Shown here in pieces: positions 3,078 through 45,257 of a stretch of 64,000 nucleotides of DNA. Position 1 is the first letter of the stretch. The number at the start of each line of letters is the position of its first letter. Below the pieces are notes generated by a model that made no database searches, had not been told where the DNA came from, and saw nothing but the letters and a program-made list of their open reading frames with translations. This stretch comes from Mobula hypostoma (lineage: Eukaryota), in NCBI RefSeq assembly GCF_963921235.1, contig NC_086097.1:97404001-97468000 (forward strand). The letters are read 5' to 3'. The translations under genes and the position numbers were made by a program.

Positions 3078-3079
3078 AT

Positions 3080-11526: not shown

Positions 11527-11530
11527 TAAG

Positions 11531-21223: not shown

Positions 21224-21293
21224 CCAAATCTCCTTGACAGATGTCAGTCCTTGAGGCTCCACCGATGATGAACTTTGGATTCTCACAGAGTTC
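21224..21293 (-). CDS. capn3: Calpain-3 exon 2 (70 bp; [24 protein letters not shown])
   Basis: Pyrimidine-rich acceptor ttttctttccttgttAG and donor GTAAGC; peptide matches calpain [24 protein letters not shown] just before the catalytic Cys exon; same length as mammalian CAPN3 exon 2 as I recall it. Confidence 0.95.
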
Positions 21294-21949
21294 CTAACAA
21301 GGAAAGAAAATATGATTACCCTGGCCTGTCAGCAATGAAAATATTTACTTCACTCAAATATTTCACACTTCACTTTGCAAAATAATCATCCATATTGCTA
21401 ACATGGCCACCAAGTTAATTTCTTTTTATACTCTCTTATGACTGAGCTATAAATTTTAATCAGATTATCATTCAAAACTACAAGAACAATGCATGAAGAC
21501 TACTGATATTGAGTACATTTCATCAGGCCCGTGCCTGCTCTCAGGGCAGCAATTCCTTCAATCCATTCCCTGGACTCCTGCAATTTACTCTGTCTGCACG
21601 TGATCTCTCCGTTGACTCATTCTGCAATTAACTAACAGTAAAGAATTATTTAAAGAAGCCAATTAATCTACCAGTATATCTTGGGTAGATTAATTATGTA
21701 CATTTACTTTAGAGGAAACTGCAGCACCCAGGACAAATTAATGTAATCACAGTGCACACTAAACAGACAATCCCGGAGGCTGGATTTGAACTTGGGATCC
21801 CCGGAGCTTTGTGGCAGCAGCTCTATCTACTGCATCACTATGCTTTTATCCCACTTGAGTCCCACTCTTTTTATAGAATAGAATTAGATTGACAGACATG
21901 AGACAAGTATTACTGGATCACAAGCAAGTTCAAAATTCAAAGTAAATTG

Positions 21950-22900
21950 ATTACCAAAGTAGATATTTGTCACAAAATGCAACCCTGAGATTCATTTTCT
22001 TGCAGGCATACTCAATAAATCCATAACAGAATAATAGCAACTATAACAGAATTAACGAAAGACCACACCAACTTGGGCCTTCAACCAGTCTGCAAAAGAC
22101 AACAAACTGTGCAAATACAAAAAAAAAGAAATAATAATAATAAATAATTAACTAAGCAATAAATATCAATAACATGAAGTGAAGGGTTATAGGTTGTGGG
22201 AACATTTCAATGGCTGGGGAAGTGAAGTTGAGTGAAGTTATCCTATTTGGTTGAAGAGCCTGGTGGTTGAGGGGTAATCACTGTTCCTGAACCTGGTGGT
22301 GGGAGTCCTGAGGCTCCTGTACCTCTTTCCTGATGGCAGCAGTGAGAAGAGAACATGTCCTGGGAGGCGGAGGTCTCTGATGATGGATGTTGCTTTGCTG
22401 CGACAATGTTTTGTGTAGATGTGCTCAATGGTGGGGAGGGCTTTCACCGTGATGGACTGGACCATATCCGCTACTTTTTGCAAGGTTTTCCATTCAAGGG
22501 AATTGTTGTTTCCACAACAGCCTGCGATGCAGCCAGTCAATATACTCTCCAGCACACATTTATAGAAATTTGTCATAGTTTTAAATGTCATGCCAAATGT
22601 TCTTAAACTCCTAATGAGTAGAGAGACTGTTGTGCGTTCCTTGTGATAACACTTCCATGCTGGACCCAGAACGGGTCCGGTCCTCTGAATTGAGAACACT
22701 GATGAATCTAAAGTTGCTGACCCTCTCCACCTCTGATCCTCCGAGGAGGACTGGCTCCTGGACCTCTGGTTTCCTCCTGCTGCAGTCAATAATCAGCTCC
22801 TTGGTCTTGCTAACATTGAGTAGGAGGTTGTTGCTGTGGCACCACTCAGCCAGGTTTTCAGTCTCCATCCTATACGCTGATTTGTCAGCACCTTTGATTT
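21950..22900 (-). mobile_element. Rex1/Babar-type LINE 3' portion
   Basis: EWCHSNNLLLNVSKTKELIID, ESILTGCI, LLPSGKRYRS, RFRNS. Confidence 0.8.
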
Positions 22901-23089
22901 GGATTTAGATAGGCACTGTTGCTGATGATAGAAAATTAAATATTAACAGATCAACTAATACTAGATAATGCAAATTTTAAAATTCCTGCAGATACTGAAA
23001 ATCCAAAATAAAAAGAGAAAATGTCTGAAACATTCAGGGGATCAGGTAACACATACTGGAGAGAGAAACAGAATTATCCAGATGCATCA

Positions 23090-23395
23090 CAGTGTCACAG
23101 TAGTGTAGCAGCTAACGTGATGCTATCACAGCTCTAGGCATTGGAGTTCAGCATTCAGTCCCAGCATCCTCTGTAAAGAGTTTGTACATCCACCCTGTGG
23201 AATGTGTGCGTTTCCTCCGGGTGCTCCGGTTTCCTCCCACAGTGCAAAGACGTACCAGTTAGTAGATTAATTGGTCACTGTAAACTGTCCCGTGATTATA
23301 CTGACGTTAAACTGGGGTTGCTGGCAATGTGTCTTCAAGAGCCAGAAGAGCCTATTCCAAGCTGTATCTTCCAATAACTAAAAAATAAAATAAAC
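23090..23395 (+). mobile_element. V-SINE/HE1-like SINE
   Basis: tRNA-like head; core TTTCCTCCGGGTGCTCCGGTTTCCTCCCACAG at about 23210-23242; A-rich tail. Confidence 0.75.
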
Positions 23396-25514
23396 TTGGT
23401 ATTGAACTGCTCGCCCAAGTGCCAGAAGTTGCAGAGAGTTCTGAGCACAGCCCAGTAATCACAGAAACCAGATTCTCCTCCATTAACTCAGTCTACACTT
23501 CCTGCTGCTTCTGGAATGTGACCAAAATAATCAACGATCTCCTACCCCGGTCATTCTCTCTTCTCCCCCCTCCTGCTGTGTAGAATATAGAAAGATTTAA
23601 GACTTTTCTACCACCAGGCTCAAGGACAGCTTCTACCCTGTTGTGCCAAGAATGGACTTCATACAATAAGCTCGTGATCTCTCGATCTACCTCGTCACGG
23701 CCCTTGCACCCGATTTGACACTTTCTCTGTAACTGGAACTATGTATTCTACGTTCTATTACAGTTTCCTTCTCTACTACCTCAACGTGCTTATGAAATGA
23801 CCTGTATGGATGACCAGCAAATAAAACTTTCCATTGTATCTCGGTATATGTGACAATAATAAACCAATTACCAATCAGAATTTCTTTTCTGGTGTAAAGA
23901 CCCTTCATCAGAACTGAGGAATGAACCAGTAAGTTGATTTTAAGTTGTAAAGAGGGTTGGAGGGGGATAAGGCAACAGTAAAGTTCAAGTTTAATTGTCA
24001 TTCAACCATACCTGGATACCCATGAATACAGCCAAAGGAAACAGGTTTACTCCGGAGCCAAGGTACAAAACACAGAACCAACAGTCACACACGGCACATA
24101 GAGCAGATATAAAATAGCAAACACATGTAAGATATCAGTAAAACAGCCGCACAAAAAATATGTAGCCCAATACTCTTGAGTCTATGAATATTGCAGAAAC
24201 CTGCAGTTGACCACAACACAGCTTGTATTCTGCCAAGCGAACACTGGAGCGGTCAGCACTGACTCCAGCTTGGACACTGTGCCATACCAGCTCCGACGTC
24301 CCTCCCCTGGGCGGCTGCAAAAAGGCAACAACGTGGCTTGAGGCCTACTCCTCACTATCACCGAGGCCATACAACTGCCCTACCATCCGCCAATAAACCA
24401 GTGAATTGGGCTTGCAGCATTCCACATCAACAGTGTCCAACAGGGTCTAGCAAGCACAAGGAAAGGCAAAGATGCCAGGGTTGCCATAGAGATCCCAATA
24501 TTTGTAGAATCGTCTGATTAGCAAATTGATGAGATAAGCTAGAGAGAGAGGTGAGGAAGGAGAGGGAGAGGGGGTGGGAAAAGGAGTGGGAGAGAGACAG
24601 GGCTAGAGAGAAAGGAAGATGTAAAAGGTGTAAAATGTAGGCCAGAGCTTGTTGCTGAAACTAAACAAATGCCTAGCAGATCGAGCAGTGTGTGTGAAGA
24701 AAGAAACTCCAGTTAGTCCTACAGATGGATAAATTTACAGAAGACCTGGCAAGTTTTGATAAAAGCAGAAGAGAAGGAAGCAGCTCTGGAAGAACTGGAA
24801 TCTTTAGTAATATTGGCTGGTCACATTAACAAGCGTTCGCCACCTTCCTGCAGGAATGTGAAGTGGATGTCATTCTGCCCTGAGCTTGACATCACTGGCA
24901 AGGCTGCATTTGGTGACTATCCCTGGCTGGCCTTGAGAAGGTGGTGCTGAGTTACAGTCTTGGACTACTGACATTTTGTGTCAGCATCCATGACGACACG
25001 AAGCAGGGGTATTGATGAAATGACCATGATGTAATGGCAGACATCTCCAAGTCATAACAAGCAAGCTGATTTGCTTTGTATAAAGCTATCAAGATGTCTT
25101 GAGAGTTGTTGACAGGGCTCTCATCCAGCAAGTAGAGTATTTTCCATCAAACTCCTTACAGGTATTGAAACGTATTGGAGGTGGTGAGGGCAGTTCTCTT
25201 AACGGGTTACACATCCTCAACCTGCTCTCGGTTGGCCACAGTATTTATGTGAATGGACCAGCTGAATTGCGGGACAACAGTGACCCGAGGACATTAAAAG
25301 TGGAGGATTTAGTGCTGCAATGCCACTGACTTAAGAACAGGTAAGTGACCTTGCTTTTGTTGGAGATGATCATTGCTGTCATTTATGCTGTGGTTACTGT
25401 TCATCAGGCCAGTCATGAGAGGGTTTCTCTCTCTCTCTCACTCTGAGTTTTTCTTCCAGGGGATGTTCATCAAACTGGCCCCTGAGACTGCTGGCTTGTT
25501 TGAAGACTGCACAT

Positions 25515-26005
25515 CAGAATCAGAATCAGAATCAGGTTTATTATCACTGGCATGTGACATGAAATTTACTATCATCCCTGCTCGAAATAAGCTGCAAAAA
25601 GTTGTAAGCTCAGTCAGCTTCATTGTGGGCACTAGCCTCACCAGTCCCCAGGACATCTTTAAGGAGTGATGCTCCAAAAAGGTGGCATCCATCATTAAGG
25701 ACCCCAATCATCCAGGACGTGCCCTCTTCATATTGCTACCATCAGGTAGGAGGTACAGGAGCCTGAAGGCACACACTCAATGATTTAGGAACAGCTTCTT
25801 CCCCTCTGCCATCCAATTTCTGAATGGACATTGAACCCATGAACACTACCTCACTATTTTTTCTCTCTTTTTGCACTACTTACTTAATGTAACTTTATAA
25901 ATACTCTAAATTACATTTTTATTATCTTGTATTGCAATGTACTGCTACCACATAACAACAAATTTCACAACATTTGCCCATGATGTTAAACCTGATTCTC
26001 ATTCT
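25515..26005 (+). mobile_element. Rex/Babar 3' fragment with an inverted tail copy at its 5' side
   Basis: LLPSGRRYRSL/RNSFFP coding relic; tail AAACCTGATTCT at the 3' end; reverse-complement (AGAATC)n tail at 25515-25565. Confidence 0.65.
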
Positions 26006-26908
26006 GCTTGTAATGGAAGCGAGATTACTGATGGAGCAGCTGATTATGTTGGGGACTGGGAGCAGAACCTCTGGGCTCAAGGATGCTTTCAACAAACTCA
26101 AGAACTTGAAGATATAAATTTAAGCAGTTTCCACTGATTTAACGAGTGCTGCTTGAGATCAAATGCTGTTTAATTCTCTCTGGCCTCCTGCCGAGATCAT
26201 TAGTTACCAGCCAAGTTGATTTAGTTCACCTGACAACTGAAGGTGCGTGAGTGCACGACACAAGCAAGGCCCGACAGTAACCTGCTGCAGGGCTAAAGAC
26301 TCTGCTCCAGGAGTACCGTCCAGTACAATTACTGCAATCACATCGACCTAGCCTTACAACGCATTGCCTGTTATGCTGCTGGCATTTAGGGTAGCAATCT
26401 CCAACGGTGTTCAGGGCTTCCTTCATCGTGTCACTAGCTTCCTCTGGGTTTTCACTCCTGTCAGTCATGCAAGTCCCGGGTGGAGACTCAGGAATACCAT
26501 CACACTCAGATGCAGAAGGATCCTTCATTGCTGTTTCTGTAACAGTTTGGTTTCACCAGTCAGGGTTGTTAGCCCTGAGCTGAACCCCTGAACCTGGAGG
26601 ATGGGTAAGACATCTCTTAGTCTGTCCTCTACCTTTTGTCCTGCCTGGCATGGGAGACCCTACCAAGCATAAAGTACTGATTCCAGCCAACAAAGCTCTC
26701 CAGGCCAGAGGTGTGCAAGCCTCCAAACCACAAGAAAGTTATGGTCCACTTGGAGGACCTAACCTCATAAAAGCCAGCCATATCCAACCTGGCCAATACT
26801 GCCCCGTCTTCCTACTACAGCCAGTGATGGAGGAAGTTCAACCATTAATACAATCAGATAAGGCTTATTCATTCATCATCTGCTCTGTTTGTACACTCCA
26901 TTCATTCT

Positions 26909-27218
26909 CAGATTCCAAAACAACCCTAGTCCAATCAAACACGAGGAGCTAGTTCCAGAACAGATTCAGAACAACCCTAGTCCAATCAAACACGAGGAGC
27001 TAGTTCCAGAACAGATTCAGAATAACCCAAGTCCAATCAAACACGAGGAGCTAATTCCAGAACAGATTCAGAATAACCCAAGTCCAATCAAACACGAGGA
27101 GCTAATTCCAGAACAGATTCAGAATAACCCAAGTCCAATCAAACACGAGGAGCTAGTTCCAGAACAGATTCAGAATAACCCAAGTCCAATCAAGCACAAG
27201 GAGCTAATTCCAGAACAG
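26909..27218. repeat. 51-bp minisatellite, about 6 copies
   Basis: Unit CAGATTCAGAATAACCCAAGTCCAATCAAACACGAGGAGCTARTTCCAGAA. Confidence 0.95.
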
Positions 27219-27644
27219 ACTACCATTGACATTACAGCAGCATTCAACCAGCTGTATGACTGAGATCAATGAGGATCAAGAGAAACTCTCTATTTTTTAG
27301 AGTCATACCTAACAAAAGGCATGACTCAGGAAACAGGACATCTTTTCTTGATCCTCATTCAAAAGACATGATCAGGGGAGTGATTTCAAGCTGTTTCATC
27401 AGCAATCATCTCTCCATCCCAAGGTCAGAAGTGGAATTGTTCAGTAATGTTCAGCTTCATTCACAGAAACTCAGGAAACAACATCGTCCATACTGCAATA
27501 GCTGAACAATATCACTGGAACAAAGTTTACATCACACAGGTGTCAGATGCAAAACTAAGAATGCCAATCTGATTAAAGATGCACAAAATTATATGAGGCA
27601 TAGTTGGAATAGATAGTAAGAATCCTTTCCCTATGGCAAAGAAG

Positions 27645-29015
27645 GATAGGCCAAAGTCAACATGGTTTCCTTAAGGGGAAATGTGTGGGAAATTTTGAGG
27701 AAATAACGGGCAGGATAGACAAAGGAGAGTCAGCGGTGCTTGGATTTTCAGAACACCTTTGACAAGGTATCTCACATGAGACTGCTTAACAAGACAAGAG
27801 CCCTTGGTATTACAGGAAAGAAACTAGCGCGGATAAAGCAGTGGTTGATTGGCAGGAAGCAAAGAGTGGGAATAAAGGGAGCCTTTTCTGGTTGGTTGCC
27901 GGTGACTAGTGCTGTTCCGCAGGGGTCGGTGTTGGGACCACTTCTTTTCACATTATATGTCAATGACTTGGATGACAGAAGTGATGGCTTTGTGGCAAGT
28001 TGGTGGACTGTACAAAGGTAGGTGGAGAGGCAGAACTTAGACCCATGAGGAGAAAGGGTAAAGAAGTGGCAGTTGGAATGCAGTATTGAGAAATGTATGG
28101 TAGAAGAATAAAGGAGTAGCCTATTTTCTAAACAAGGACAACATTCAAAAATCAGAGGTGCAAAGGGACTTGGCAGTCTTTATGAAGGATTCCCTAAAGT
28201 TTAACTTGGAGGCTGAGTCGGAGGTGCAGAAGGCAAATTCAATGTTAGCATTAATTTTGAGAGGACTAGAATGTAAAAGCAATAATGTACATAATGCTGA
28301 GGCTATATAAGGCATTGGTCAGACCGCACTTGGAGTATTGTGAGCAGTTTCAGACCCTTGTCTAAGAGGAGGTTCATGAGAATGATTCCAGCAATGGAAG
28401 GGTAAACATATGGGGAGCGTTTGACAGCTCAGGGCCTGGACTCGCTGGTGTTTAGAAGAATGAGAGGGGATCTCATTGAATCATATCAAATATCGTTGTG
28501 GAAGAGTCTAGGACTCAGCCTCAGAATAGAAGGACGTCCCTATGTAATAGAGAGGAAGAGGAATTTCGTTAGAATAGAAGCACATCCCTATATAACAGAA
28601 ATAAAGAGGGATTTCATTAGCCAGAGAGTGGTGTGCTATTAATGTACTTTATTTATTTAGAGATACAGCCCTTCCACCCAGCAACCCACCTTATTTAACC
28701 CTAGCGTAATCACATGACAATTTACAATGACCAATTAATCTACTAACCAGTACATCTTTGGACTGTGGGAGGAAGCTGGAGCACCCGGAGAAAACCCATG
28801 GCGTCACAAGGAGAACGTGCAAACTGTGGAGGTCAAGTCATTGGGTATATTCAAAGCAGAAGTTGATTGGGTCTTCATTGGTAAGGGTGTCAAAGGTTAC
28901 AGGGAGAAGGCAGGAGAATAGGATTGACAGTGAAAATAAATCAGTCATGATGGAATGGCAGAGCAAACTTGTTGAGCCAAATGGCTTAATTCTGCTCCGA
29001 TGTCTTAAGGTCTTT
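27645..29015 (+). mobile_element. Decayed CR1 RT/3' region with a SINE inserted at about 28650-28825
   Basis: DFQNTFDKVSH, VPQGSVLGPLLF, RRMRGDLIE. Confidence 0.8.
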
Positions 29016-29172
29016 ATTGCCAATGTAGTCCTCTCTCTTCAACCTCAGCCTGCTCTTTAAACTGAAAAGCCAGGACATTTCCAGACCAGTTGGACTGTCT
29101 TAATATACAGAAATATGGAGTGGCCTCCCTCTCACATCTGGAAACAAGCATCAGCTTGGATCCCCTCCTTAC

Positions 29173-29424
29173 CTGGGGTCTTTTCCACAAAATGTTCTTC
29201 ACTTTGCTGGATTTTTGCCCCAGCTCCTTATATCCAAGAGTCGCAGTGGTAGCTGGGAACATATCATCTTCAAATAAGATTTTTTTCTTCAGGCAGTCTT
29301 TCTTCAGCCTCACAAAGTCCTGCTCAAGGTATTTGATGGGCTTTTGAAAAGTCCCTTCACCATCCCGTATCTTTCTTTCACGCACGAGACGGTCACAGAA
29401 GAAGCCCGGACCTGTGTACAGCAT
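29173..29424 (-). CDS. capn3: Calpain-3 alternative first coding exon, Lp82/AX1 (lens) type, 84 codons
   Basis: GCC-ATG context; MLYTGPGFFCDRLVRERKIRDGEGT...LFEDDMFPA...WKRPQ resembles rodent Lp82 AX1 (MPYLLPGFFCDRVIRERDRRNGEGT, from memory); phase-0 donor GTAAGG; no stops. Confidence 0.9.
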
Positions 29425-29508
29425 GGCTCTCTCAAAACAAATTCAGTTCAGCCTCCCCTGACAGTGCCAGGGTTAATGAAGCAGAAAAGGCCTTGCCCTG
29501 GAATTGGT

Positions 29509-29618
29509 GATATCAGCCAGCACGTTACGGTCATCAGAGACCACAGACCCCTGGCCTAAATCCGATATCAGCCAGCACTTCTCAGTCTTCAGAGACCACA
29601 GTCCCTTGGCCTAAATCC
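29509..29618. repeat. 55-bp tandem duplication upstream of the AX1 exon
   Basis: GATATCAGCCAGCAC...GGCCTAAATCC occurs twice with a few mismatches. Confidence 0.85.
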
Positions 29619-30104
29619 AGGCTGAATACTGCTGATAGGATGGGCTTCCAACAACGTCACACCTGCAGAATTGGGTTTAAAAAAATGCTGATCCTCCCTC
29701 AGGCCATTGACCAAGAAACAATGGAGCAAGAAAGACAAAGCCCCTTGACCGCCGAGGGGCTGTTGCTCGACAACAGGCCCATTGCACAGATAACACTGGT
29801 GAAGAAGAGAGATAAGCCTCCTTTTTTAGCTCTGTCCAAAGAACTGAAAGAGGCCCAGTCTGCCTCAGCAAAAGACATTCAAATTTAAAGCTGCATTCAA
29901 TGGGTATTGTGTGTGACACGCACTGGGCTTTAATCCATTGTCTCTAGGTCCTGTGTCCCTGCTTGGGCTGTATTGAGTCAATGAGCACACGTGATACAAT
30001 ATTTCTCCACATAACTCCAAACTATTCACCTCTCAACCCTGCTTGGTGAGGTTGGCGAGGGGTTATCAATTTCCCTTTGTATTATCATTGTTTTAAGCAT
30101 CTAC

Positions 30105-30690
30105 AATTCAGAATCAGGTTTAATATCACCAGCACGTGTCGTGAAATTTATTTGACTTTGTGGCAGCAGTATCACAGTCATAGTCATAGTCATAGTCATA
30201 CTTTATTGATCCCGGGGGAAGTTGGTTTTCGTTACAGTTGCACCATAAATAATAAATAGTAATAGTAATATTACTATTAGTAAATAGTAAATAGTAATAG
30301 TCGTGGAAATAATAAATAGTAATAGAATAGTAATAGAAAATAGTAATAAATAGTTAAATGGTAATATGTAAATTATGCCAGTACAATGCCATACATAATA
30401 ATAGAGGGAGTAAACTGTGAGTTGCAGTAAGTATATATATAATAGTTAACTTAAATAAGTTGTACAAAAAATAGAAATAAAAAACGTAGTGAGGTCTCGT
30501 GCTCATGGGTTCAATGTCCACTCAGAAATCCAAAGGTAGAGGGGAAGAAGCTGTTCCTGAATCGCTGAGTGTGTGCTTTCAAGCTCCTGTACCTCCTACC
30601 GGATGGTAACAGTGAGAACAGGACATGACCTGGGTGATGACGGTCCTTAATGATGGACACGACCTTTTTACGGCATCACTCCTTGAAGAA
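30105..30690 (-). mobile_element. Rex/Babar 3' end with a nested tail fragment and (CATAGT)n/(AATAGT)n microsatellites
   Basis: (AGAATC) tail; reverse complement of RFRNSFFP and SGRRYRSL. Confidence 0.65.
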
Positions 30691-33264
30691 GATTCAGCCC
30701 AACTGACCTGTGCTAGTCCACAGCCTGTCTGTGCTAGTCCCATTTCCTTGTGTTAGGCCTTTACCCCTCTACATCTTTACTATCCCGTGACTGTTCATGC
30801 GTTTTATGTTAATGTTGTAATTGCACCCACCTCCACTACTACCACTTTCTCCATGTGCCAACCATACAGTGTGTAAAAAATGCCCCTCAGGATCCCTTCC
30901 TTAAAGAAGGACTTCAAGTCTTTCCCCTCTCACCTTAAACCTATGCCTCTAGTTTAGGACCGGGGGAAAAGGCTGTGACTATCTACCTTATTTATCTCTG
31001 AGCCAGATAAAGGTGATTCTCCCAGATCTCAACAGAATTAGGGAAAGATGGTGACCTTGTAGGGAGCCATTTGACTTGTCATATCCATGTCAGTCAAAAA
31101 AAGGGGATTTCCCCCCTCCCCCCCCCCACCAACCTAACGCTACCTGCCAGAACTGGGTGTGTATCTCTGAAAGTCATGATTCCTCCTGTCCACAATCATT
31201 TAGTGTTTAACGTGAAGAGGTTTTCTGCTTCCATTACCTTTCAGGCACTATAATTCAGTCTTGCACCACCACCACCCCCCCAGCCTCTGGGTAAAACTGA
31301 TTTTATTCAACTGCCCTCTTCTCTATCTACCAGTTATTTGAACTCTTGACCCTTTGGTTTCCCTGTGCTAAGGGAAACAGCCCTTCCTATTTTCAATATC
31401 TGACCCCCTGATAATCTTATAGACCTCGGTTAAGTCTACTATCATTCGACTCGGCTCTGAAGGAAACAACACAAACTTACCCATGCTTTCTTTCAGCAAC
31501 ACCTCCGCTCGAAAGTGATTTAGGATGATGTAACGATGTGCTCTGTGCTCATTGGAATACGCCAGTGTCAGCAGCAGGACTGTATTTTTGATGAAATATT
31601 CATTATCGTTGTGTGTGGAATGAAGACTCAACGTATCACAGCACTAAGCTGTGTCTTGTCTATTAAATGAAGTACGATAAGGCAGGAGGTGGCCAGCAGC
31701 CCCTACCCTAAATACTGCTTATTCAAAGGACATTCTCTTCGCTGAGCTCCAGTCCAAGCTATAGTATTCATGATAACATAAATAAATGTAGCAGCAAAAT
31801 AACTCACCAAAGCAAGCTACAAATCAATATATTCTTACATTCTGACTTAAAATTTGTTAAAATTTGAGCCCTTACTGAATTTTTACATTCATGCCTGTAA
31901 ATATGAACAGAAACATTCTTCTGTGTGGAATTTTTTCTCACTGCTGCAACAGATACAGCAGTAGTTGAAGCAAGTTAGTTATAGAATGATATAACACAGC
32001 TTTCCTGTAAAGCTGCCTCACTGAATAATTTCTGACAATTCAAAGACAATAGAACTGCCTTAAAAAATTCCTCGCAAAAGAACGGACCCTTTATTAATAG
32101 CTTGATAAATTACCTTTGATTTCATATTTCCTTACCACGCCACAGGCCATTCAACCCACTATGCTGGCTCTCAGAGCATTCCCAGAATTTCCATTCCCAC
32201 TTATTTTCCTAAAATCTGTAGTGTCCCACATTCCCATCACTTCCCTGTTCTACTGTCACCCACCAACTTAAGGAGTAATTTAGCAGCCATTTAGCCTACT
32301 AACCAGCACAAATTCAAGGAGGCAACCAGTGTACCCAGCAGGAGGCCAACATACAGCTGCAGCAAGAGGTTAGGAGGACAAATGGTATATTAACTATTCT
32401 GCAAGCTGATTTTCAGCAAGATTCAGGTGTTCTGGCAGCACCCAGAGCAGATACTGCCAGTCCCCAGCATTGTGCCAGCCAAATTGCGATCTTCAGCCCC
32501 ATGTTGTAGCACTAGGTACGGTATGTCTACCACTCACCCCAACCTACCCAACACGGTAAATCTCATATAGAGAGACAAATCTCTGATACACCACTGTACG
32601 GTTGCTCAGAGGTCCCAATTGTTTGGCCTCTGGTTCACCGCAGACCTGTTACCAAACTCCCCCTGCACTGGGCAATGGTTTACTACTGTCACATATACTA
32701 AGATACAGTGAAAAACTTTATTTTGCATGCCACACCAGTGAGATCACTCCAAAGGTAAGAATGTCGAGGTCGTAGGAAAGGAAAAACAGTAACAAAATGC
32801 AGAATATAGTATGACATTTACAGAGAAAGTACAGTACAGGCAGACAATAAGGTGCAACTCCATGATGAGGTAATTGAAGGTCAAGATTTCATCTTTATCA
32901 TATAAGAGGTCCCTTCAAGAGTTTTATAACTGGGATAGGAGCTGCCCGTAAGCCTGGTGGTATGAGTTCTCCCTTGCTGCCCCAAACAAGAATGACCCTG
33001 GTAGAAGGGGCTTTGCCAGCCAGTTGCCCATTTCCTACATTTCTTTGAAAATCACCAGGGACCCATTTCCTGTGTTCCCTGTAAACTCAACAGGGCCGTA
33101 CTTTCACCAGAGCACCTGCCCCCAATGTCCCTTCAAGCACACAAGAGTCCTGTTTCCTATGTTGTCTCTAAACTAGAGACTTTATAATACAATTGCATAA
33201 TAGTTGCAGTCCAGCATTTAAAAAGTGACTTAAAAGTTTGTCAGGAAAGAAATTAATTAACTAA

Positions 33265-33510: not shown

Positions 33511-33851
33511 CTACCCTTGAATATGAACAAATATCCAATAGTCTGGAAAATCTGCCTGCCCGGCATCATGAAAGCTCTGAGAGTGCGGGATTATCTGACG
33601 TGTCCACACTGAGCCAAGGATGATTGATGGTTTCGGAAATGCTGATGGAGAGCACATAACCTTATCGAATGGAAGAGCTGATCGGAGGGGTCAAACACAT
33701 ACTCCTTATCCATATCCTAAGCAAACAGAAGAGTCTCCTAATAGAATACAGAACAGTACTGTACAGCAGAGGAAAAGACCCTTCACCCAGTATGCGCTGA
33801 AGATGACATCAAAGTAAACTACATTGCTTCTCTATCCAAAACATGTTCCAT

Positions 33852-34795
33852 ACTCCAAGTTTGCGGATGACACGAAGCTGGGCGGCAGTGTTAGCTGTGA
33901 GGAGGATGCTAAGAGGATGCAGGGTGACTTGGATAGGTTAGGTGAGTGGGCAAATTCATGGCAGATGCAATTTAATGTGGATAAATGTGAGGTTATCCAC
34001 TTTGGTGGCAAGAACAGGAAAACAGATTATTATCTGAATGGTGGCCGATTAGGAAAAGGGGAGGTGCAACGATACCTAGGTGTCATTATTTACCAGTCAT
34101 TGAAAGTGGGCATGCAGGTACAGCAGGCGGTGAAAAAGGCGAATGGTATGTTGGCATTCATAGCAAGAGGATTCGAGTACAGGAGCAGGGAGGTTCTACT
34201 GCAGTTGTACAAGGCCTTGGTGAGACCACACCTGGAGTATTGTGTGCAGTTTTGGTCCCCTAATCTGAGGAAAGACATTCTTGCCATAGAGGGAGTACAA
34301 AGAAGGTTCACCAGATTGATTCCTGGGATGGCAAGACTTTCACATGGAGAAAGACTGGATCGACTAAGCTTATATTCGCTGGAATTTAGAAGATTGAGGG
34401 GGGATCTTATTGAAACATATAAAATTCTAAAGGGATTGGACAGGCTAGATGCAGGAAGATTGTTCCCGATGTTGGGGAAGTCCAGAACGAGGGGTCACAG
34501 TTTAAGGATAAAGGGGAAGCCTTTTAGGACCGAGATGAGGAAAAACTTCTTCACACAGAGAGTGGTGAATCTGTGGAATTTTCTGCCACAGGGAACAGTT
34601 GAGGCCAGTTCATTGGTTATACTTAAGAGGGAGTTAGATATGACCCTTGTGACTAAAGGGATCGGGGGTATGGAGAGAAGGCAGATACAGGGTTCTGAGT
34701 TGGATGATCAGCCATAATCATACTGAATGGCGGTGCAGGCTCGGAAGGCCAAATGGCCTACTCCTGCACCTATTTTCTATGTTTCTATGTTTCTA
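33852..34795 (+). mobile_element. Young 5'-truncated CR1 LINE with an open RT C-terminal frame
   Basis: 297-aa ORF SKFADDTKLGG...RPHLEYCVQFWSP...NFFTQRVVNLWN; (TTTCTATG)n tail. Confidence 0.92.
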
Positions 34796-35454
34796 TCCCT
34801 CCATTCCCTTTATATTCATGTGTCCATCAAAAAACCTCTAACTACCACTTTCGTATCTCCCTCCACAACTAGCCCTGGCAGCTCACTCCAGGCACCCAAC
34901 ACTTCTCTTTTAAACTTTCCCCTCTCACCTTCAATTTACTGAATGCCTTCTAGTGCTTGACATGTCAGCTCATCCATTCCCCCCAGGTTCTATCACTCAC
35001 CTGCATAGTAGGAGCCAATTGACCTCCCTGTCTTCCGGATGTGAGAGTAATTAGGACCACACAGAGGAAAGCCACAGGGAGAACTTGCAAACTCCACACA
35101 GACAGCACCCAATATCAGGATCAAAACGGTCTCTCTGAAGCTTTGAGGCAGAAGCTCCACTAACTGTTACTGTGCTGTCCTGCTGTAAGAAGCATATTGT
35201 ACTTGGTTGACTGGCCTCTAACTCCCCCCCCCACCACCCCCATTAACTCATTAAACCAGACAACCTCTACAACTCATCCCCGTGGCAACCTTGAACTCAG
35301 CCAGTCACAGATATTTCCCATCCATCCCTTCTGCCACCATCTCTGGAACTTAAAACTGTCTTGATCTCTTTCACCCAGTATTTATGAGAGGACTTTGACC
35401 TGAAATGTTTTCTCTGTATCTCTGTCAATGGATGCTGCTTGACCTGCTGAGCAT

Positions 35455-38400
35455 TCGATAAGGTGCCGCACATGAGGCTGCTTAACAAGATAAAATTCTG
35501 TGGCATAACAAGAAAGATACTGACATGAATAGAGAAATGGCTGACAGGCAGGAGGCAGTGAGTGGGAATAAAGGGGGCCCACCTTATGAAAACAGGTTGA
35601 GTGAACTTGGCCTTTTCTCCTTGGAGCAACGGAGGATGAGAGGTGACCCGATAGAGGTGTATAAGATGATGAGAGGTGTTGATCTTGTGGATGGTCAGAG
35701 GCTTTTTCCCAGGGCTGAAATGGCTGCCACAAGAGGGCACAGGTTTAAGGTGCTGGGGAGTAGGTACAGAGGAGACATCAGGGGTAAGTTTTTTACTCAG
35801 AGAGTGGTGAGTGTGTGGAATGGGCTGCCAACAATGGTGGTGGAGGCGGATACGATAGACTTTTGGATAGCTACATGGAGCTTAGAAAAATAGAGGGCTA
35901 TGGGTAAGCCTAGTAATTTCTAAGGTAGGGACATGTTCAGCACAACTTTGAGGGCTGAAGGGCCTGTATTGTGCTGAAGGTCTTCTATGTTCTATGTTCT
36001 ATTCTGGTTGGCTACCAGTGACTGGTGGGGTTCCTCAGGAGTTGGTATTGGGACTGCTACTTTTCAATTTGTTTGTCAATGATTTCGATAATGGAATTGA
36101 TGGCTTTGTGGCAAAATTTGTGGATGATACAAAGGTAGGTGGAGGGGTAGGTAGTGCTGAGAAAGCAATGTGATTGCAGTAGGACTTAGACAGATTGGAA
36201 GAATGGCAAAAAAGTGGCAGATGGAATAGAGTGTGTTGGGAAATGTATGACAGTGCATTTGGTAAAGGGATCAATATTGCGGACTATTATCGACATGGGT
36301 AGAGAGTTCAAAGGGACTTAGAGGTGCAGAGGGACTTAGGAGTCCTCATGCAAGACTCCAAGAAGGTTAATTTACAGGTTGAGTCTGTGGTAAAGAAGGT
36401 AAATACAATGTTGGCATTTATTTCAAGGGGAATAGAATATAAAAACAAGGAGATAATGCTGAGACTTTATAAGCCACTAGTCGGGGCACACTTGGAGTAT
36501 ATTATAAACAGTTTTGGGTCCCATATCTTAAAAAAAGGATATGTTGTCATTGGAGAGAGTCGAGAGAAGGCTCACAAGGTTGATTCCAGGAATGAAGGGG
36601 TTAACATACTCCTGTACTCACTGGAATTTAGAATTTTTTTTTAAATGCGGGGGGATCTCATTGAAACCTAACAAATGTTGAAAGAACTAGATAAGAGGAT
36701 GTGAAGAGGATGTTTCCTATGGTGGGAGCATCCAGAACTGGAGGGCACAGCCTCAAAATTGAGGGGTGACCTTTTAGAACAGAGGAAAGGAGGAATATTT
36801 TTAGCCAGAGTGTGGTGAATCAGTGGAATGCTCTGCCACAAACTGCGGAGGAGGCCAAGTCCGTGGGTATATCTAAGGCAGAAGCCGATGGTATCCTGAT
36901 CGGTCAGGGCATAAAAGGAAGTGCTTATGGAGTATAAGAAATGCAAGAGAACACTTAAGAAAGAAATCAGAGGGCTAAAAGAGGGCATGAGGTTGCTGTA
37001 GCGGACAAGGTGAAGGAGAATTGTAAGGAATGTTGAGAGCAAAAGGATTGCAAGGGACAAAATTGATCCTCTGAATGGTCAGAAGAACGATCCATGTGTG
37101 GAGCCAAAAGAGATGGGGGGAGATCTTAAATAATCTATATTAACTCAGGAGATGGGCACAAAGTCTATAGAAGTGAGGCAAAGTGACGTTAGCTTCATAG
37201 ACACTTTACAGATTGCAGAGGCTGAGTTCCTTCCTACTCTGAAGCACATTAGGGTAGATAAATCCCCAGGGCCTGACAAGGTGTTCCCTCCAACCCTACG
37301 AGAGGCTAGTGCAGAAATTGGTGCCCTTGCAGAAATATTTAAATCATTCTTAGTGACAGGTGATGTACCAGAGGATTGGAGGATAGCCAGTGTTGTTCTG
37401 TTGTTCAAGAAAGGCTGTCAGCATAATCCAGGATATTATAAACTGGTGAATCTGACGTCAGTAGTGCGAAAGTTATTGGAAGGTACTCTGAGGGATTTGA
37501 TATATGAATATTTGGATAGATATTGACTGATGGAGGATAGCCAACATGGCTTTGTGTGTGGTATGTCTAACCAAATGTATATAGTTCTTTGAGTAAGCCA
37601 CCAGGAAAGTTGATGAAGGCAAAGCAGAAGTTGTTTACATGGACTTTAGTAAGTCATTTGTCAAGATCCCACATGAGAGGTTGGTCAAGAAGGTTCAGTC
37701 ACTCGGCATTCAAGATGAGGTAGGAAATTGGATTGGACATTGGGTTTGTGTGAGAAGCCAGAGAGTGGTAGTAGATGGTTGCCTCTCTGACTGTAGGCCT
37801 CTGACCAGTGAGGTGCTGCAGGGATCAGTCCATTGTTGTTTGTCATCTATATCTGGATGATAATGTGTTCAGCTGGATCAGCAAATTTGCAAATGACACA
37901 AAGATTGGGGGTGTAGTGGACAACGAGGAAGCCTATCGTGGAATCTGGACCAGCTGGAAAAATGGGCTGAAAAATGGCAGATGGAATTTAATGCAGACAA
38001 GTGTGAGGTGCTGCACTTCAGTGGGACCAACCAGGGTAGATCTTACACAGTGAACGATAGGGCACTGAGGAGTTTGGTAGAACAAAGGCTTCTGGAAATA
38101 CAGGTTCGTAATTCATTGAAGGTGGTGTCACAGTTAGATAGGTCGTAAAGAAAGCATTTGGCATATTGGCCAAAAGCTGAGTACAGGAGATGGGATGTTA
38201 TGTTGAAGTATAAGACATCGGTGAAGCCAATTTGGAGTATTGTGTGCAGTTTTGATCACATACCTACAGGAAAGATGTAAATAAGGCTGAAAGAGTACAG
38301 GGAAAACTTACAAGGGTGTTGCTGGGACTGGAGGACCTGAGTTATAAGGAAAGATATAATAGGTTAGGACTTTATTCCTTGGAACATAGAGGTGATTTGA

Positions 38401-38705
38401 TAGAGGTGTACAAAATTGGGGTCATGGCTTAAGGGTGAAAGGTGAGAAGTTTAAGGGAAACATGAGGGAAACCTCTTACCTCAGAGGGTCATGAGATTGT
38501 GGAATGAGCTGCCAGCACAAGTGGTGCATGCGAGCTCGATTTCAATGCTTAAGAAAAAGTTTGGATTTGTACATGGATGGCAGGGGTATGGAGGGCTATG
38601 GTCTTGGTGCAGGTCCGTGGGAGTAGGCAGTTCAAATAGTTCAGAACAGAGCAGATGAGTCAAAGGGTTTGTTTCTGCTCTGTACATTTCAATGACTCTA
38701 TAACT
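35455..38705 (+). mobile_element. Cluster of nested or abutting CR1 fragments
   Basis: Repeated CR1 motifs (KSPGPD, WRIASVVLLFKKG, DFSKSF, RGDPIEVYK); a CR1 3' end with a (TTCTATG)n tail is inserted at about 35579-36000. Confidence 0.8.
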
Positions 38706-38797
38706 CTAATAGCAGGTTTCTGATCTGACCATTTCCTTTTTAAATGAAAATGCGACACTTCCCAAGATTCAGGAAGTGCAAAGCTTTATGAGCATGC

Positions 38798-38984
38798 TGT
38801 TATGTTTTGTGACTTCAAAACCTTAAACTAATTCAAAGGAGGACACAAGAATCCAAAAGGTGAGTCTAACTTCGTGTTTAAGCAAGGCGCGCATATCATG
38901 TGGTAACGTGATGACGTGTGCAATTCCCACATCAATATATTTACAATATTACTCAAATACTACTGAAATATTAAATACACAACA
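38798..38984. repeat. Short solo-LTR-like element
   Basis: TGTT...AACA termini; its end is the reverse complement of sequence starting at about 62939, so it is a repeat family. Confidence 0.5.
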
Positions 38985-40589
38985 TGTCGTCAGGAATCAA
39001 GAGGCTGGGCAGGCTAGGACTTGATTTCTTGGAGTGTAGGAGACTTGAGGGAGAGATTTTATCGAGGTGGATAAGATCATAGGGGGAACAGAGAGGATAA
39101 ATGCACACAATCTTTTCCCCAAAAAGACTGGAGGTCTTAGGTTTAAGATGAGGGGAGAAAGGTTCAAAGGGGACCTGAGGGACAACCTCTTCACGTAGAG
39201 AGTGGTGTGTGTATGGAACAAACTGCCAGAAGACACTTCTAGAGATACAGGGAATACTACTGGACAGTGACATGGATAGGAAAAGTTTAGAACAATATGG
39301 ATCAATTAGGTGTGCAACTTGACCAGCATGGACAGGTTGGGCTGCAGGGCCTATTTCCATTCTACATTTCCCTGTGACCCTATGACTCCAGAGTCACCTG
39401 CAGACTAATGGTCACTGTGCCTAATCTCTAGGCTATGCCCGGTACGTGCCATTGGTAAGCCCAAGGTGGCATACAAGAGGACATCTGCTCATCCCAGAGG
39501 TGAGGGAGATTTAATTATAAACACATCTTTTTGACTGGTCCATTCTCTGCCTCCCTAAAAGATTTATTTACTTACTTACTACTTATGACATGAAGGAGGC
39601 TATTTAGCACTTCAGATCCGACGGTTCACTGCAGAGCAATCTCCTAAGTGCCAATCCTCTGCACCCCTGCAACTCATTCTCCCTCACTCTCCTTCCATTC
39701 TTCTGCCACTTACCCAGGGACAATTTACAGAGGCCCTTTTAAACCAACAACCTGCTCAAATTTGGGACCTGAGAGGAAAGCAGATCAGCCACATAGTCAC
39801 AGAGTGGAGCACACAAACTCTATACAGACCACACCTGAAATCAGCACTGAAGCTTGAGTTTCAAAGTAGCAATACTAATTGTACCACATTTAAAAGCAAC
39901 TTCCTTATTTTTTGTAAATATTGTTTAGGAAGGTTGTGAGAACAACCGTTGTTCCTCATTTTTTTGAAGTGTCATGAGGTCTTTTACAACCATGTTACAG
40001 GCAAACAGCCATGATTACTTGTAACTCGGTAAATGGACACATCCCAGTTCCGGGGAATGGCACTGGTATTAACTCCCCTTCTGTAACATCACTTAAATCT
40101 TGCTTCTGCTGCAGTGTTCAAGCTCTACTGCAGTAATATCTCATCTAACAAGACCCCAGCAGCTGCAACTAGGCAGTCTACTATCGTGATATATTCTCTC
40201 TCAACTTCTCAGCTTCTCTTTTTTTGTTAGCCGCTTATCCACAACAAGAGGCAGTGGTCGATGAACATGGGCTTTTTTAGGGAGGAAACCAGAGCATCTG
40301 GAGGAAATCCACACAGTCACAGAGGGAAGATGGGAACTCCAAACAGAATTGAAGCAGCAGCACTGTGCTATCTCTTTGTGTACAGTCAGTGAAGTGTTGG
40401 CTTGACGTCAGAACAATCTTTATTGAAGAGGGGAGATTGAACATAGTGACAGTGACACACTACCATGAGAAGTAAAGCAAGGACTGAATCCACCATGTGA
40501 AATCTGGGTTAAGTAATAAGCAAAAAATACTTTGCACCAGTATATCCTTATAGTTATGCATATCTTACGTGTGCAAACGAAACATGTTA

Positions 40590-41140
40590 TTTATTTAGAG
40601 ATAGAGCGTGGGACAGGCCCACCCAGCCCAAAGAGCCGCCATGCCCAGCAACCCATCTATTTGGTCCTAGCCTAAACACAGGACAATTTACGATGATCAA
40701 TTAACCTGCTAATCGGCACGCCTTTGGACCGTGGGAAGAAACCCGCACACTCGGAGGAAACCCGCACACTCGGAGGAAACCCGCACACCCAGAGGAAACC
40801 CGCACACTCGGAGGAAACCCGCACACTCGGAGGAAACCCGCACACCCAGAGGAAACCCGCACACTCGGAGGAAACCCGCACACCCGGAGGAAACCTGCAC
40901 ACCCAGAGGAAACCCGCACACTCGGAGGAAACCCGCACACTCGGAGGAAACCCGCACACCCGGAGGAAACCTGCACACCCGGAGGAAACCCGCACACTCG
41001 GAGGAAACCCACACACTCGGAGGAAACCCGCACACCCAGAGGAAACCCGCACACTCGGAGGAAACCCGCACACTCGTGGAAAGAACGTGCAAACTGCTTA
41101 CAGGTGCTGCAGGAACTCCAAGCTGTAATAGCATTATGCC
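40590..41140 (-). mobile_element. V-SINE/HE1-like SINE containing an internal minisatellite
   Basis: SINE flanks match the other copies (CACAGGACAATTTAC; AACGTGCAAACT). Confidence 0.75.
40736..41075. repeat. 19-bp minisatellite, 18 copies
   Basis: Unit GGAGGAAACCCGCACACTC with variants. Confidence 0.95.
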
Positions 41141-43489
41141 GCTGTGGTACCTCGTTTATCCTCAATGTTAACGTGCCGTGCTGCAAAAGGTTAATTTCCA
41201 AGGCATTTATACCCTGCGTCCATATGCTACGCCAACAACAAACTTGAACTTGAACAGTGAATCACAGAGGGAGCACCCTACAGAACACCTGTGCAAATAT
41301 CGAAAAGCAGTGGCAGCAGTATTGAAAGCAACGCCATCAAATTTTTCTACAGCATTAAACTTCAAAGATTACTTCTGTCTCTTTTAATTGACCTCTCTGC
41401 CAGTTTCTCATTGCAGCTCTATATTAGGTGAGAAATTCTGCCCTTGACTGGTGTGACTCTGGTGGTAATTGGCATTGGAGCAGAGAAAATACTCTATATA
41501 CAGTAGACCTTGAGCACGGTGAGACCCAGCTGCCACAACCCCCTGCAACAGGCTGGCATCTGCTGTCCAGGAATAAACCCTAAAAGGCTGGGGGATCTTC
41601 ACAACAAAGAACGCACATTCCAGGCTGGGAGAAGCCCGAAAGCATCCCTCAAGGTATAAAAATCTTGCTTTGAATGGCAGGTGAAGGAATCTGAAAGGAA
41701 ACACCAGGCAAATGGAGGGATAGATTTATTCTTCATATGAGCAGCACAGAGGAACGAGAGGAACTCAGAGGGCCAGGTGGCATTGGTTGGGGGTGGGGGA
41801 CGGGAAGGAATTGTGGACAATTAGGGTCAAAACTCTGTATCGTCGCTGAGAGTGGAGAGGAGAGGAAGCCAGTATGAAGAAGAGAGGGGAAGTGGTGAGG
41901 TATGGGTTAGTAAGTGGACCGAGGAGGGGTGAGGAATGACAGGCCGGGAGCAGTAGTGGCATTGGGAAACGGGACGGTGGGTAATAGATGCAGGTGGACA
42001 AAAATACAATGGCAGGTTGAGTTGGGTGAGGGGGAGGGGAGGCTGAGGCTGAAGCTGGAGCCGGTTGAGAGATTTATTGTCCCTATGCTGAATTTTTCAA
42101 CCTTGCTTTGCATTTAGTTCCCGATGGTGCGGCAGACTAGGTGGGCTGACAAGATAGGGAAGCCATCTCTGTAACTTGTTTTTGGGAATGTGGAATGAAA
42201 TCAAACCTGTAAATGTTCCATGCATTCAGCACATGAAAGTCCCTCAAACCTCCGACTGTGCAGATTATAAAAAAAGGTGCTGACCGAGCTAGCAAACAAC
42301 TTCCACGTCAATCACACATGACCAGATGACCAGTCAGAGGTCAGACTCGCTTACCACGAGAGATGATGCGACCTTTAAATATTCTGTGGCTTCTAAGACC
42401 CCGCAGGAAATGCGAGCATGTACTATTGAAATATTTTTTCCTGCACTTGGCTCAACACTTCCAGCAGAGAGTAACAGGTACATTTACTACCTGTGATTTT
42501 AAACTAGTAGTCTGTTACTCGAAGTGAAGACCCAGTACAATGAACAAACTGAATGATACAAATACTGAAAATGCCAATTAAGATATGAAGATCAATCTAT
42601 TTGAAGAAGTGCATTAGACACCCAGATCCCTTCACATGTCACTACTTTTCAATAGTTTGTCATACTCTGCCTTCCTGTTTTATTCTACTAAAGTCAACAT
42701 TTTTACATTCCATTCCACCTGCCACACTTTATCCCATTCACATCATGTACTTAGCACTGCACTTTGCCGCAAAACAACACAGTCGGTGAAATTTGCCCGT
42801 GACAATAATTCTGATTCTGATTCTTTCTGCATCCTCCAGGCCAGGGGTTCCCAACACTCATCATTAACCAAAAGGTCCACAGACCCCAGGTTGGTTCCCC
42901 TGCTCTACGCCTGTAGGGTATAGGCAGGGTAAAACTGTAACAAGGGAATAGACCACACTTAGTTTGTCTATATTTCTGTTTCACGCAAGGTATTTCAGGG
43001 GGAAAACGGGAAAGGGAACTAAAGCCAGAGTTTCTTGTGTGAAAGAGGAAGTTGAAAAGCTGATGAGGGAACCTAAGAAGCATGCCAGGTGAGCAGGTCC
43101 ACTGAGATAGATGGGTCAAAACATCTGCCCAGAATAAGGGGCTGACTGGAGACCAGACTCTGCTGAGGCTTTCACAGATATGTATATGTGGACGTACCTG
43201 GAACAGAAAGCACACTTATCCTTCTGATCATTCCATCAGTTTTCCCTCAATAGTGTGACTCCCTCTTCCCTTCATTACCTCCCTCAGGCTAGTGTCATTC
43301 GCCGACTGAACCCCACAAGGACTGTCTTCCACTGATTCCATCTTCCCCACTGACCCCTGTCTCCCTCACTGACCACCAATCCACAAGGCGTAAACACCAG
43401 GAATTCTGCAGATGCTGGAAATTCAAGCAACACACATCAAAGTTGCTGGTGAACGCAGCAGGCCAGGCAGCATCTCTAGGAAGAGGTAC

Positions 43490-43525
43490 AGTCGACGTTT
43501 CGGGCCAAGACCCTTCGTCAGGACT
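43490..43525 (-). ncRNA. Minimal type-I hammerhead ribozyme motif (Penelope pLTR)
   Basis: AGTC-CTGACGA-A-GGGTCTTGGCCC-GAAAC-GTC-GACT: intact core, stems I and II, palindromic ACGT stem III. Confidence 0.75.
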
Positions 43526-43906
43526 GGCAGCATCTCTAGGAAGAGGTACAGTCGACGAAGGGTCTCACCTACCTGATGGCATGAACATCGACTTCTCTAA
43601 CTTCCACTAATGCCCCACCTCCCCCTCGTACCCCATCCGTTATTTATATACACACATTCTTTCTCTCTCTCTTCTTTTTCTCCCTCTGTCCCTCTGACTA
43701 TACCCCTTGCTCATCCTCTGGGTTTTTCCCCCCCTCCCCCTTTTCCTTCTCCCTGGGCCTCCTGTCCCATGATCCTCTCATATCCCTTTTGCCAATCACC
43801 TGTCCAGCTCTTGGCTCCATCCCTCCCCCTCCTGTCTTCTCCTATCATTTTGGATCTCCCCCTCCCCGTCCAACTTTCAAATCTCTTACTAACTCTTCCT
43901 TCAGTT

Positions 43907-43942
43907 AGTCCTGACGAAGGGTCTCGGCCTGAAACATCGACT
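43907..43942 (+). ncRNA. Minimal hammerhead motif, decayed
   Basis: AGTC-CTGACGA-A-GGGTCTCGGCCT-GAAAC-ATC-GACT; CpG-type changes at the ends of stems II and III. Confidence 0.6.
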
Positions 43943-45008
43943 GTACCTCTTCCTAGAGATGCTGCCTGGCCTGCTGCGTTCACCAGCAACTTTGATGTGT
44001 GTTGCCACCAATCCACAAGACCTGTGTCTCCTACTGACCCTACACCTACAGGATCCCTGTGGTGCTTGAGAGGGAAGAAGAGAGAAAACAAGGGGGGAGG
44101 GGAATGTGCAACCAAAGCTAGAGCTGTAAGATCAGGCTTTAGAAGTTAAACACTAATATTAAAAACAAACTGCTGGAAGAGCTCTGTGGGGCATCAGCAT
44201 CTTTGGAGGTAGAGAGACAGTGCACATTTTGGATTAAAGCCTTGCATCAAGATCTAAGATGTCAGCTATCATTTTCCCTTCACAGATATTTCCTGGCCTG
44301 CTGAGTGTCTTCAGCAGCTTGTTCTTTCTCCAGGTTCCAGCATCTGCAGTCTCGCGTGTCTCTAGAAACAATAAAGTGGACAATTCTGGAAATCAAGCAG
44401 CTTCTGTGGTGGAAGAGAGAAGACAGCGGGTAGATGACCAGTTCTGATACAAACTAGAAAGTCTGGGCTTCTTAACTTCCTGAATTCAGTGTTAGGTTCA
44501 GGAGGCAGTGGGTGGTGGAAGAGAGAAGACAGACCTTTCAACAGATCTGTCCAGTTCTGGCACAAACAGGGAAGACTGGGCTTCTGGGATTCCTGAATTC
44601 AGTCTTGAGTTCTGGGGGCGAGGCATAGATGGATACCGGTGGATAGATGAAGTCCCACCTCTTGAACTATCCTTTCACTTTCTTGAGAGTGAAAGAGGCC
44701 AAAGAGAGAGAACAATAGAAAAAGAGAACTATACCACCCCTCTCACTTTTCTGCAACTTGAAATATGTACCTTGTAACTTTTATCCAATCATATTAAATG
44801 CTCATCGACATGAAGCGTTTACTGTTTTGCTTTACGTGAGCTACCTGAATCTGTTGAGTATCTCCAGCACTTTCTGCAGCTTCTTACGTTTTTCCAAGAA
44901 TAAATACGTGGAGAAGGTGGCATTTCTTACAGAGAAACAGTGCAATCCAATATACACACTGTAAGAGGACGGATTACAGTTAACCATGTACAACAGCTAA
45001 ACACTCAC

Positions 45009-45257
45009 TGGGGGTCTTTTCCACTCCAGCTTGAAAGGCAAAAACTGGCTGTAAAATAGAGAGGATTCATCTGCAGGGAATTCCGGATCTTCAAAGAGGA
45101 CACCCTTCCTCAGGCACTCCTTCTTCAGGAACTGAAAGACCTCACTCTTGGCTTTGATGACATCTTTGTTGCGATTGATAATGGGATACAGGCCACCCTT
45201 ATTGGGCAGGGGTAGGCGAGCCGGTGATCGTTGTGCAGAGTTGATATCGTGAGGCAT
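45009..45257 (-). CDS. capn3: Calpain-3 first coding exon, muscle p94 NS type, 83 codons
   Basis: ACC-ATG; RSPARLP...GGLYPIINRN...LFEDPEFPADESSLFYSQFLPFKLEWKRPP resembles human NS exon (SGIYSAIISRN...[27 protein letters not shown], from memory); phase-0 donor GTGAGT. Confidence 0.93.

Follow-up and report, generated by a model that had tools for sequence, protein, structure and literature searches.

Calpain-3, the product of a limb-girdle dystrophy gene, is known in forms with two different N-termini, p94 and Lp82. In rodents these are presumably encoded by a first exon termed NS and by another, lying downstream of it, for which we take AX1 to be the name, the mammalian AX1 peptide being, we assume, the Lp82 N-terminus. 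In humans the AX1 exon is inactivated. This description may be too simple, since one paper reports, for humans, variants whose initiation exon is atypical. At the transcript level, the available text of two sources describes how alternative promoters and splicing of the single rodent Capn3 gene give rise to muscle and eye isoforms (PMC2150676; PMC8480384), and rodent Lp82 is described there as lacking exon 6 (PMC8480384). In zebrafish, a cloning primer for capn3a encodes an AX1-type start, and this gene is expressed mainly in the lens at 2 days post-fertilization (accessible parts of PMC3641591 and PMC9957097). The present analysis concerns a 64,000-nt stretch of the genome of the ray Mobula hypostoma (NC_086097.1, positions 97,404,001 to 97,468,000; hereafter the window), the reverse strand of which carries the beginning of capn3 with two candidate first exons, one of the NS/p94 type and one of the AX1/Lp82 type, in front of a common exon 2. 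With a probability of roughly 0.85, the ray has one capn3 gene in which these two exons are promoter-linked alternatives giving p94-like and Lp82-like forms.

Two first exons and one exon 2 in the ray genome

Both first exons are open from the start codon to the splice donor (positions of all features are collected in Table 1). The NS exon comprises 249 nt, or 83 codons without a stop, with the start CACC-ATG and the donor CCA/GTGAGT, and the AX1 exon 252 nt, or 84 stop-free codons, with the start AGCC-ATG and the donor CAG/GTAAGG, both donors being in phase 0. Exon 2 is flanked by an AG acceptor rich in pyrimidines and by the donor GTAAGC, is in frame behind either first exon and corresponds, when translated, to the Mobula RefSeq calpain-3 protein from residue 84 onward. 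When both strands of the 64 kb are considered, codons for W-K-R-P-x with GT behind them are present at exactly two places, the ends of the two first exons, and a calpain hidden Markov model run over the 2706 stop-free segments of the window matched only the three exons (E values of 1e-31, 9e-14 and 3e-12; the next was 1.8). Repeats detected by self-BLAST cover none of the three exons, as against 35% and 37% of two intron stretches. Each first exon codes for an N-terminal arm and ~30 residues of the protease core, the NS peptide aligning with positions 1-31 of Pfam Peptidase_C2 at a score under the curated cut-off. Neither a third alternative first exon nor a match to exon 3 or to later exons was found within the window; exon 3 onward thus lies outside it, and intron 2 must exceed 21 kb. 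N-terminal extensions of Narcine and Chiloscyllium models were considered as extra exons and rejected, as they map to the Mobula 5' untranslated region (UTR), where they lie downstream of in-frame stops or have no ATG, the one from Chiloscyllium being in another frame.

At the protein level, the NS peptide matches the N-terminus of the M. hypostoma RefSeq calpain-3-like isoforms X1 and X2 with 100% identity, and at both positions of the exon peptides that separate this species from M. birostris the window has the M. hypostoma residue. Protein matches to the NS peptide are calpain-3 in 13 of 15 cases (one so named by UniRef only) and calpain-9 in the other two, and those to the AX1 peptide are all named calpain-3 or calpain-3-like (6/6). 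The identity of AX1 amounts to 89% with calpain-3 isoform X3 of the stingray Hemitrygon akajei, 70-71% with skates and sharks (71% for the shark and skate isoforms among 27 candidates), 62-65% with bony fishes and 56% with an open reading frame (ORF) of Myotis. The Mobula RefSeq calpain-3 protein that starts with the NS exon and exon 2 contains calpain domains (C2-like, PEF) and IS2. GANC and ZNF106 are the neighbours that we would expect for capn3; scanning of 13 long reading stretches of the window revealed no other host gene.

The link between the AX1 exon and the remainder of the gene comes from relatives of the ray. In Hemitrygon akajei, the skate Amblyraja radiata and the bamboo shark Chiloscyllium plagiosum, AX1 and NS isoforms are identical in sequence after exon 1 (3/3 species), and in Hemitrygon and Amblyraja their accessions are consecutive. 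The supplement of PMC4043111, in its accessible part, additionally contains two contigs with a splice into exon 2, one from the catshark transcriptome that starts from an AX1-type exon and one from the nurse shark that starts from an NS-type exon; the words 'lens', 'splice' and 'isoform' do not occur in the available main text of that paper. The Mobula models contain the NS-exon 2 junction only. That both first exons serve one gene body is supported, in the relatives, by these identical bodies and shark complementary DNAs (cDNAs). AX1 could instead open a calpain gene of its own, or be a stray piece of calpain-1/2 that became inserted into the intron, considering that its best structure matches in the PDB are calpain-2 and calpain-1, with calpain-3 not among the 14 matches (for the NS peptide human calpain-3 is the best match, followed by calpain-9), and that one mammalian AX1 ORF is labelled 'calpain-1' at its source. 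The identical isoform bodies remove the tandem-gene alternative, however, and the single exon 2 in the window, the catshark cDNA that ties AX1 to the capn3 body and the uniform naming of the AX1 protein matches leave either version of this proposal hardly tenable. The first-pass annotation, made from the letters alone, had proposed a capn3 gene of a cartilaginous fish with two intact, ATG-initiated open exons amid decayed transposons, both ending at WKRP with phase-0 GT donors in front of one 70-bp exon 2 and both belonging to one gene and not to separate tandem genes; it is borne out on all these points, and the best protein matches do not go to a different calpain.

In the arrangement proposed here, transcripts from an upstream promoter would join the NS exon to exon 2, skipping AX1, and encode the p94-like form, and a promoter within intron 1 would drive transcripts in which the AX1 exon is joined to the same exon 2 to encode the Lp82-like form. 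The two first exons of the single gene would thereby be promoter-linked and mutually exclusive. Since each of them carries part of the protease core, the swap would alter part of the catalytic domain too, AX1 bringing a 23-residue loop in an N-terminus of the conventional, calpain-1/2-like kind and NS an 18-residue loop in a calpain-9-like core. We infer that AX1 is expressed in Mobula.

Age of the AX1 exon and its relation to other calpains

Exon-1 peptides were compared in a tree of 72 hand-picked rows (15 AX1, 10 NS, 4 CAPN9 and 43 others), which, like the other exon-1 trees, is unrooted. All 15 AX1 rows form one group with a support of 100/99, the members of which include a chimaera (elephant shark), sharks, gar, teleosts, the coelacanth, the bat Myotis davidii and two unnamed look-alikes. 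The M. davidii entry (ELK28906.1) bears the source name calpain-1 catalytic subunit, yet it groups with the CAPN3 AX1 exon, and the name is likely a misannotation. Among the best 120 of 426 AX1 matches, a redundant set ranked by likeness to AX1 and composed of sharks, skate, gar, bowfin and teleosts, 117 have an AX1 peptide of exactly 84 residues. When codons were counted by hand against the catshark cDNA, the Mobula exon showed neither indels nor stops; the residue was changed in 24 codons and kept in 60, of which 23 had a silent difference. Conservation of the AX1 exon as coding sequence is supported by these comparisons. Because its representatives comprise a chimaera, elasmobranchs, ray-finned fish, the coelacanth and a mammal, the two-first-exon design almost certainly existed in the ancestor of jawed vertebrates, in line with what the first-pass annotation had suggested. 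The dual p94/Lp82 N-terminus of the dystrophy gene would accordingly be at least as old as that ancestor.

The two exons are themselves homologous, their peptides sharing 41% identity over 54 residues. On sequence comparison they are nevertheless not each other's closest kin and ally with different calpain subfamilies, a point absent from the first-pass annotation. The NS peptide aligns with calpain-3, calpain-9 and calpain-5 without length difference, and residues 12-83 of AX1 align gap-free with residues 7-78 of calpain-2. The loop before WKRP has a bimodal length distribution, 44 of the 332 scorable proteins having 18 residues there and the other 288 having 21-23 (11 gave no match): exon 1 of CAPN9 has the 18-residue loop of NS, exon 1 of CAPN1/2/8/11 the 23-residue loop of AX1, and tetrapod CAPN12 has the same motif as AX1 in the accessible part of the PMC4043111 alignment. 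In the tree, the split of NS plus CAPN9 from AX1 plus the rest receives a support of 100/100. An approximately unbiased (AU) test against a clade of AX1 plus NS, with indel columns dropped, gave a modest p=0.03 for 30 rows and 50 columns under LG+G4, the less conservative model setting. Regarding structure, the AlphaFold model of the stingray AX1 form has a mean predicted local distance difference test (pLDDT) score of 73, with an N-terminal helix at residues 9-19 scoring <50, and that of the Mobula NS form (mean pLDDT 49) is too poor to use.

Considering the bimodal loop, the NS plus CAPN9 split, the AU result and the length match of calpain-5 to NS, it may tentatively be proposed that both exons are older than CAPN3. 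Exon 1 of a proto-calpain would have been duplicated before the vertebrate classical calpains radiated, CAPN9 keeping the NS type, CAPN1/2/8/11 (and CAPN12) the AX1 type and CAPN3 alone both, to be split again after the teleost genome duplication, with AX1 and lens going to capn3a and NS to capn3b. If this were true, the 'lens-specific alternative' exon would be a conventional calpain N-terminus, and the core of p94 the calpain-9-like one. The same pattern is predicted if capn3 captured one first exon from a paralogue, of the CAPN1/2/8/11 or the CAPN9 type, through shuffling or conversion early in vertebrates. Such a capture agrees with the fact that, among the calpains compared, the two exon types occur together only in CAPN3 (CAPN9 and CAPN1/2/8/11/12 have a single exon-1 type each in the proteins compared, their loci not having been searched for a second first exon) and with the NS type of the one lamprey CAPN3 row that covers the region in the accessible part of the PMC4043111 alignment. 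Against it, AX1 nests inside no single paralogue with firm support, and the long-loop type is also found in tetrapod CAPN12, which would make both types older than CAPN3; CAPN12 is placed outside CAPN9+CAPN3+CAPN1/2/8/11 in the available text of the same paper (PMC4043111). Capture thus appears a possible but rather doubtful origin, and, as the trees are unrooted, they do not choose between it and a two-exon ancestor.

Upstream regions and tissue use

For the ray we infer a division of labour in which muscle would probably be the chief site of NS and lens that of AX1. The motif cluster upstream of NS would suit expression in muscle, and that upstream of AX1, weakly, expression in lens: a MEF2 site together with two E-boxes occurs in only 1 of 106 tiles of 600 bp, the one upstream of NS, and the lens-motif rule selects 2 of the 106, the AX1 upstream tile and one other. 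The 17-nt element near the AX1 start, taken from the catshark AX1 cDNA in the supplement of PMC4043111, matches the window at one place only, with 3 mismatches, and a match at any place was obtained in 6 of 100 shuffles. A 55-bp tandem duplication (29509-29618, 87% match), the end of which is overlapped by this catshark-conserved element, lies directly upstream of the AX1 5' UTR and may alter the AX1 promoter in Mobula. As for the remainder of the protein, IS1 is found in 0 of 10 chondrichthyan AX1 models versus 15 of 36 NS models (exon 1 being scorable in 46 of the 56 proteins), so that the AX1 models echo Lp82 without exon 6. IS1 itself looks ancestral to jawed vertebrates; according to the available text of PMC3783371, it is present in tetrapods and missing in sea bream and halibut. 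Shark calpain-3 models, the only ones here in which it was observed, carry an IS1-length insertion along with IS2, and the Mobula models found are without IS1.

Several observations weigh against two working first exons with such a tissue division. The promoter motifs were picked after the sequence had been viewed, and they are consensus matches, not a functional test; IS2 is retained in 4 of 10 AX1 models, all automated, unlike in Lp82; and in zebrafish at 4 days post-fertilization, capn3a shows enrichment in brain as well (PMC3641591, accessible part). The RefSeq isoforms that connect AX1 to the gene body are automated models as well. No Mobula AX1-form protein appeared in cluster look-ups, which do not give the full RefSeq view, though Mobula NS models matched. 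Finally, batoid AX1 is 61-68% identical to bony-fish AX1, against 70-79% for shark AX1, and constraint on the exon may be looser in rays.

Some of these observations would be accommodated if AX1 were functional in the ray without being lens-specific, as a general embryonic or non-muscle first exon whose restriction to lens came later in bony vertebrates. The brain enrichment and the weak lens-motif signal agree with this, as does the broader expression of calpains in fish than in amniotes (PMC4043111, available text). It is nonetheless an unlikely account, because AX1-type forms are lens-associated in zebrafish and presumably also in rodents (PMC8480384), and because the AX1 form is missing from the isoforms found for Mustelus and Carcharodon, as it is from those found for M. 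hypostoma and M. birostris (X1 and X2, NS only), which would fit a rarely sampled tissue. Recent silencing of AX1 in Mobula, with the exon left as a relic, could be argued from the missing Mobula model, from the faster divergence of batoid AX1 and from the repeats that occupy 69% of the 1.2 kb immediately downstream of the exon. However, reading frame, start context and donor are all intact, the conserved upstream element is present, and identity to the stingray over the tree columns is similar for AX1 (91%) and for the annotated NS exon (94%), so that silencing seems quite improbable. The AX1 exon is probably unannotated in Mobula. The first-pass annotation had warned that automated annotation could easily miss one isoform, and this stands insofar as AX1 is absent from the Mobula models found; the novelty was overrated, both forms being RefSeq isoforms in three other elasmobranchs.

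Table 1. Features of the capn3 region in the window
Feature	Positions	Strand	Remarks
Coding part of the upstream, NS/p94-type first exon of capn3 (83 aa)	45009..45257	-	includes initial ~30 protease-core residues
Coding part of the downstream, AX1/Lp82-type first exon of capn3 (84 aa)	29173..29424	-	isoform matches, tree, structure matches
Exon 2 common to both forms, 70 nt, up to the catalytic cysteine codon region	21224..21293	-	
Intron 1 of the NS form, housing the AX1 exon and decayed repeats of the long interspersed nuclear element (LINE) type	21294..45008	-	self-BLAST
Intron 2, running beyond the window edge, housing long terminal repeat (LTR) retrotransposons	1..21223	-	Pfam retroelement domains
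Cluster of muscle-type motifs upstream of NS	45515..45741	-	consensus scan
CArG; MEF2 consensus; CAGCTG E-boxes	45741-45732; 45683-45674; 45632, 45520	-	upstream of NS
Lens-type motifs upstream of AX1	29626..29723	-	two AT-rich half-MARE-like sites (29691, 29635); SOX-like CATTGT (29723)
17-nt non-coding element ~98 nt upstream of the AX1 ATG	29506..29522	-	match to catshark AX1 cDNA start

The introns contain further repeats. An LTR retrotransposon in intron 2 (10693-17029, plus strand) has terminal repeats of ~830 bp that are 94.5% identical, a SCAN domain in its gag-side frame and integrase domains ahead of reverse transcriptase and ribonuclease H, all in broken frames; its domain order resembles that of Gmr1-like Gypsy elements. 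Running toward the window edge is a piece of a second Gypsy-type retrotransposon (111-3174, minus strand) with DUF7041, reverse transcriptase, ribonuclease H and integrase zinc-binding domains, and intron 1 holds two minisatellites (26909-27219, 51 bp x 6.1; 40734-41076, 19 bp x 18.1).

Comparison with other elasmobranchs, teleosts and rodents

In RefSeq, both starts are modelled for Hemitrygon akajei, Amblyraja radiata and Chiloscyllium plagiosum, and only NS was found for Mobula, where the window indicates a probable unannotated capn3 isoform. The dual-exon arrangement is largely in databases already through automated annotation of other elasmobranchs, and its basic design is known from mammals, which limits the surprise and leaves a moderate interest in the deeper evolutionary reading. 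Within the calpain literature searched, a description of the AX1 exon was not found, nor was any report that cartilaginous fish have both exons, the primary papers on Lp82 and on fish calpains being outside the listings; the top listings likewise yielded no description of the CAPN9 versus CAPN1/2 affinity of the exons or of their partition between capn3a and capn3b. Those primary papers may well note already how AX1 resembles conventional calpain N-termini.

In teleosts, the two N-terminus types of the ray reside on two genes in the models found, and not on one. The accessible part of the PMC4043111 alignment has 6 AX1-type and 7 NS-type teleost CAPN3 rows, with six species contributing one of each; apart from one teleost group, the AX1-type CAPN3 rows are those of gar, coelacanth and catshark, and the NS-type rows comprise 10 amniotes and the nurse shark together with the other teleost group. 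Zebrafish capn3a is of the AX1 type and lens-expressed, the other teleost paralogue group being of the NS type, and the duplicates appear to have split the exon pair, capn3a having AX1 and capn3b NS. This would explain the difference in expression between the two genes, and in zebrafish disease models capn3a and capn3b would appear to be the counterparts of two first exons, for lens and for muscle respectively, that one ancestral gene had. Within CAPN3, moreover, non-orthologous sequence is mixed by calpain trees in which the exon-1 region is kept, as exemplified by the rows of the above alignment (PMC4043111, accessible part).

The rodent p94/Lp82 system (with Lp85 and Rt88) and the ray locus both have one gene with alternative first exons and NS upstream. 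They are also alike in the absence of IS1 from the chondrichthyan AX1 models and differ in that some of these models keep IS2, and in the loop, which has 23 residues in ray AX1 and 22 in mammal-type AX1; the human p94 first-exon peptide is longer than the 83 residues of the ray. The best 120 of the 426 AX1 matches, all from fish, include no named rodent Lp82 sequence, and a further search led to the bat ORF and the unnamed look-alikes; it is through the bat ORF that the putative link to Lp82 is drawn. Taken together, the capn3 system of the ray very probably works like the rodent p94/Lp82 system and is orthologous to it.

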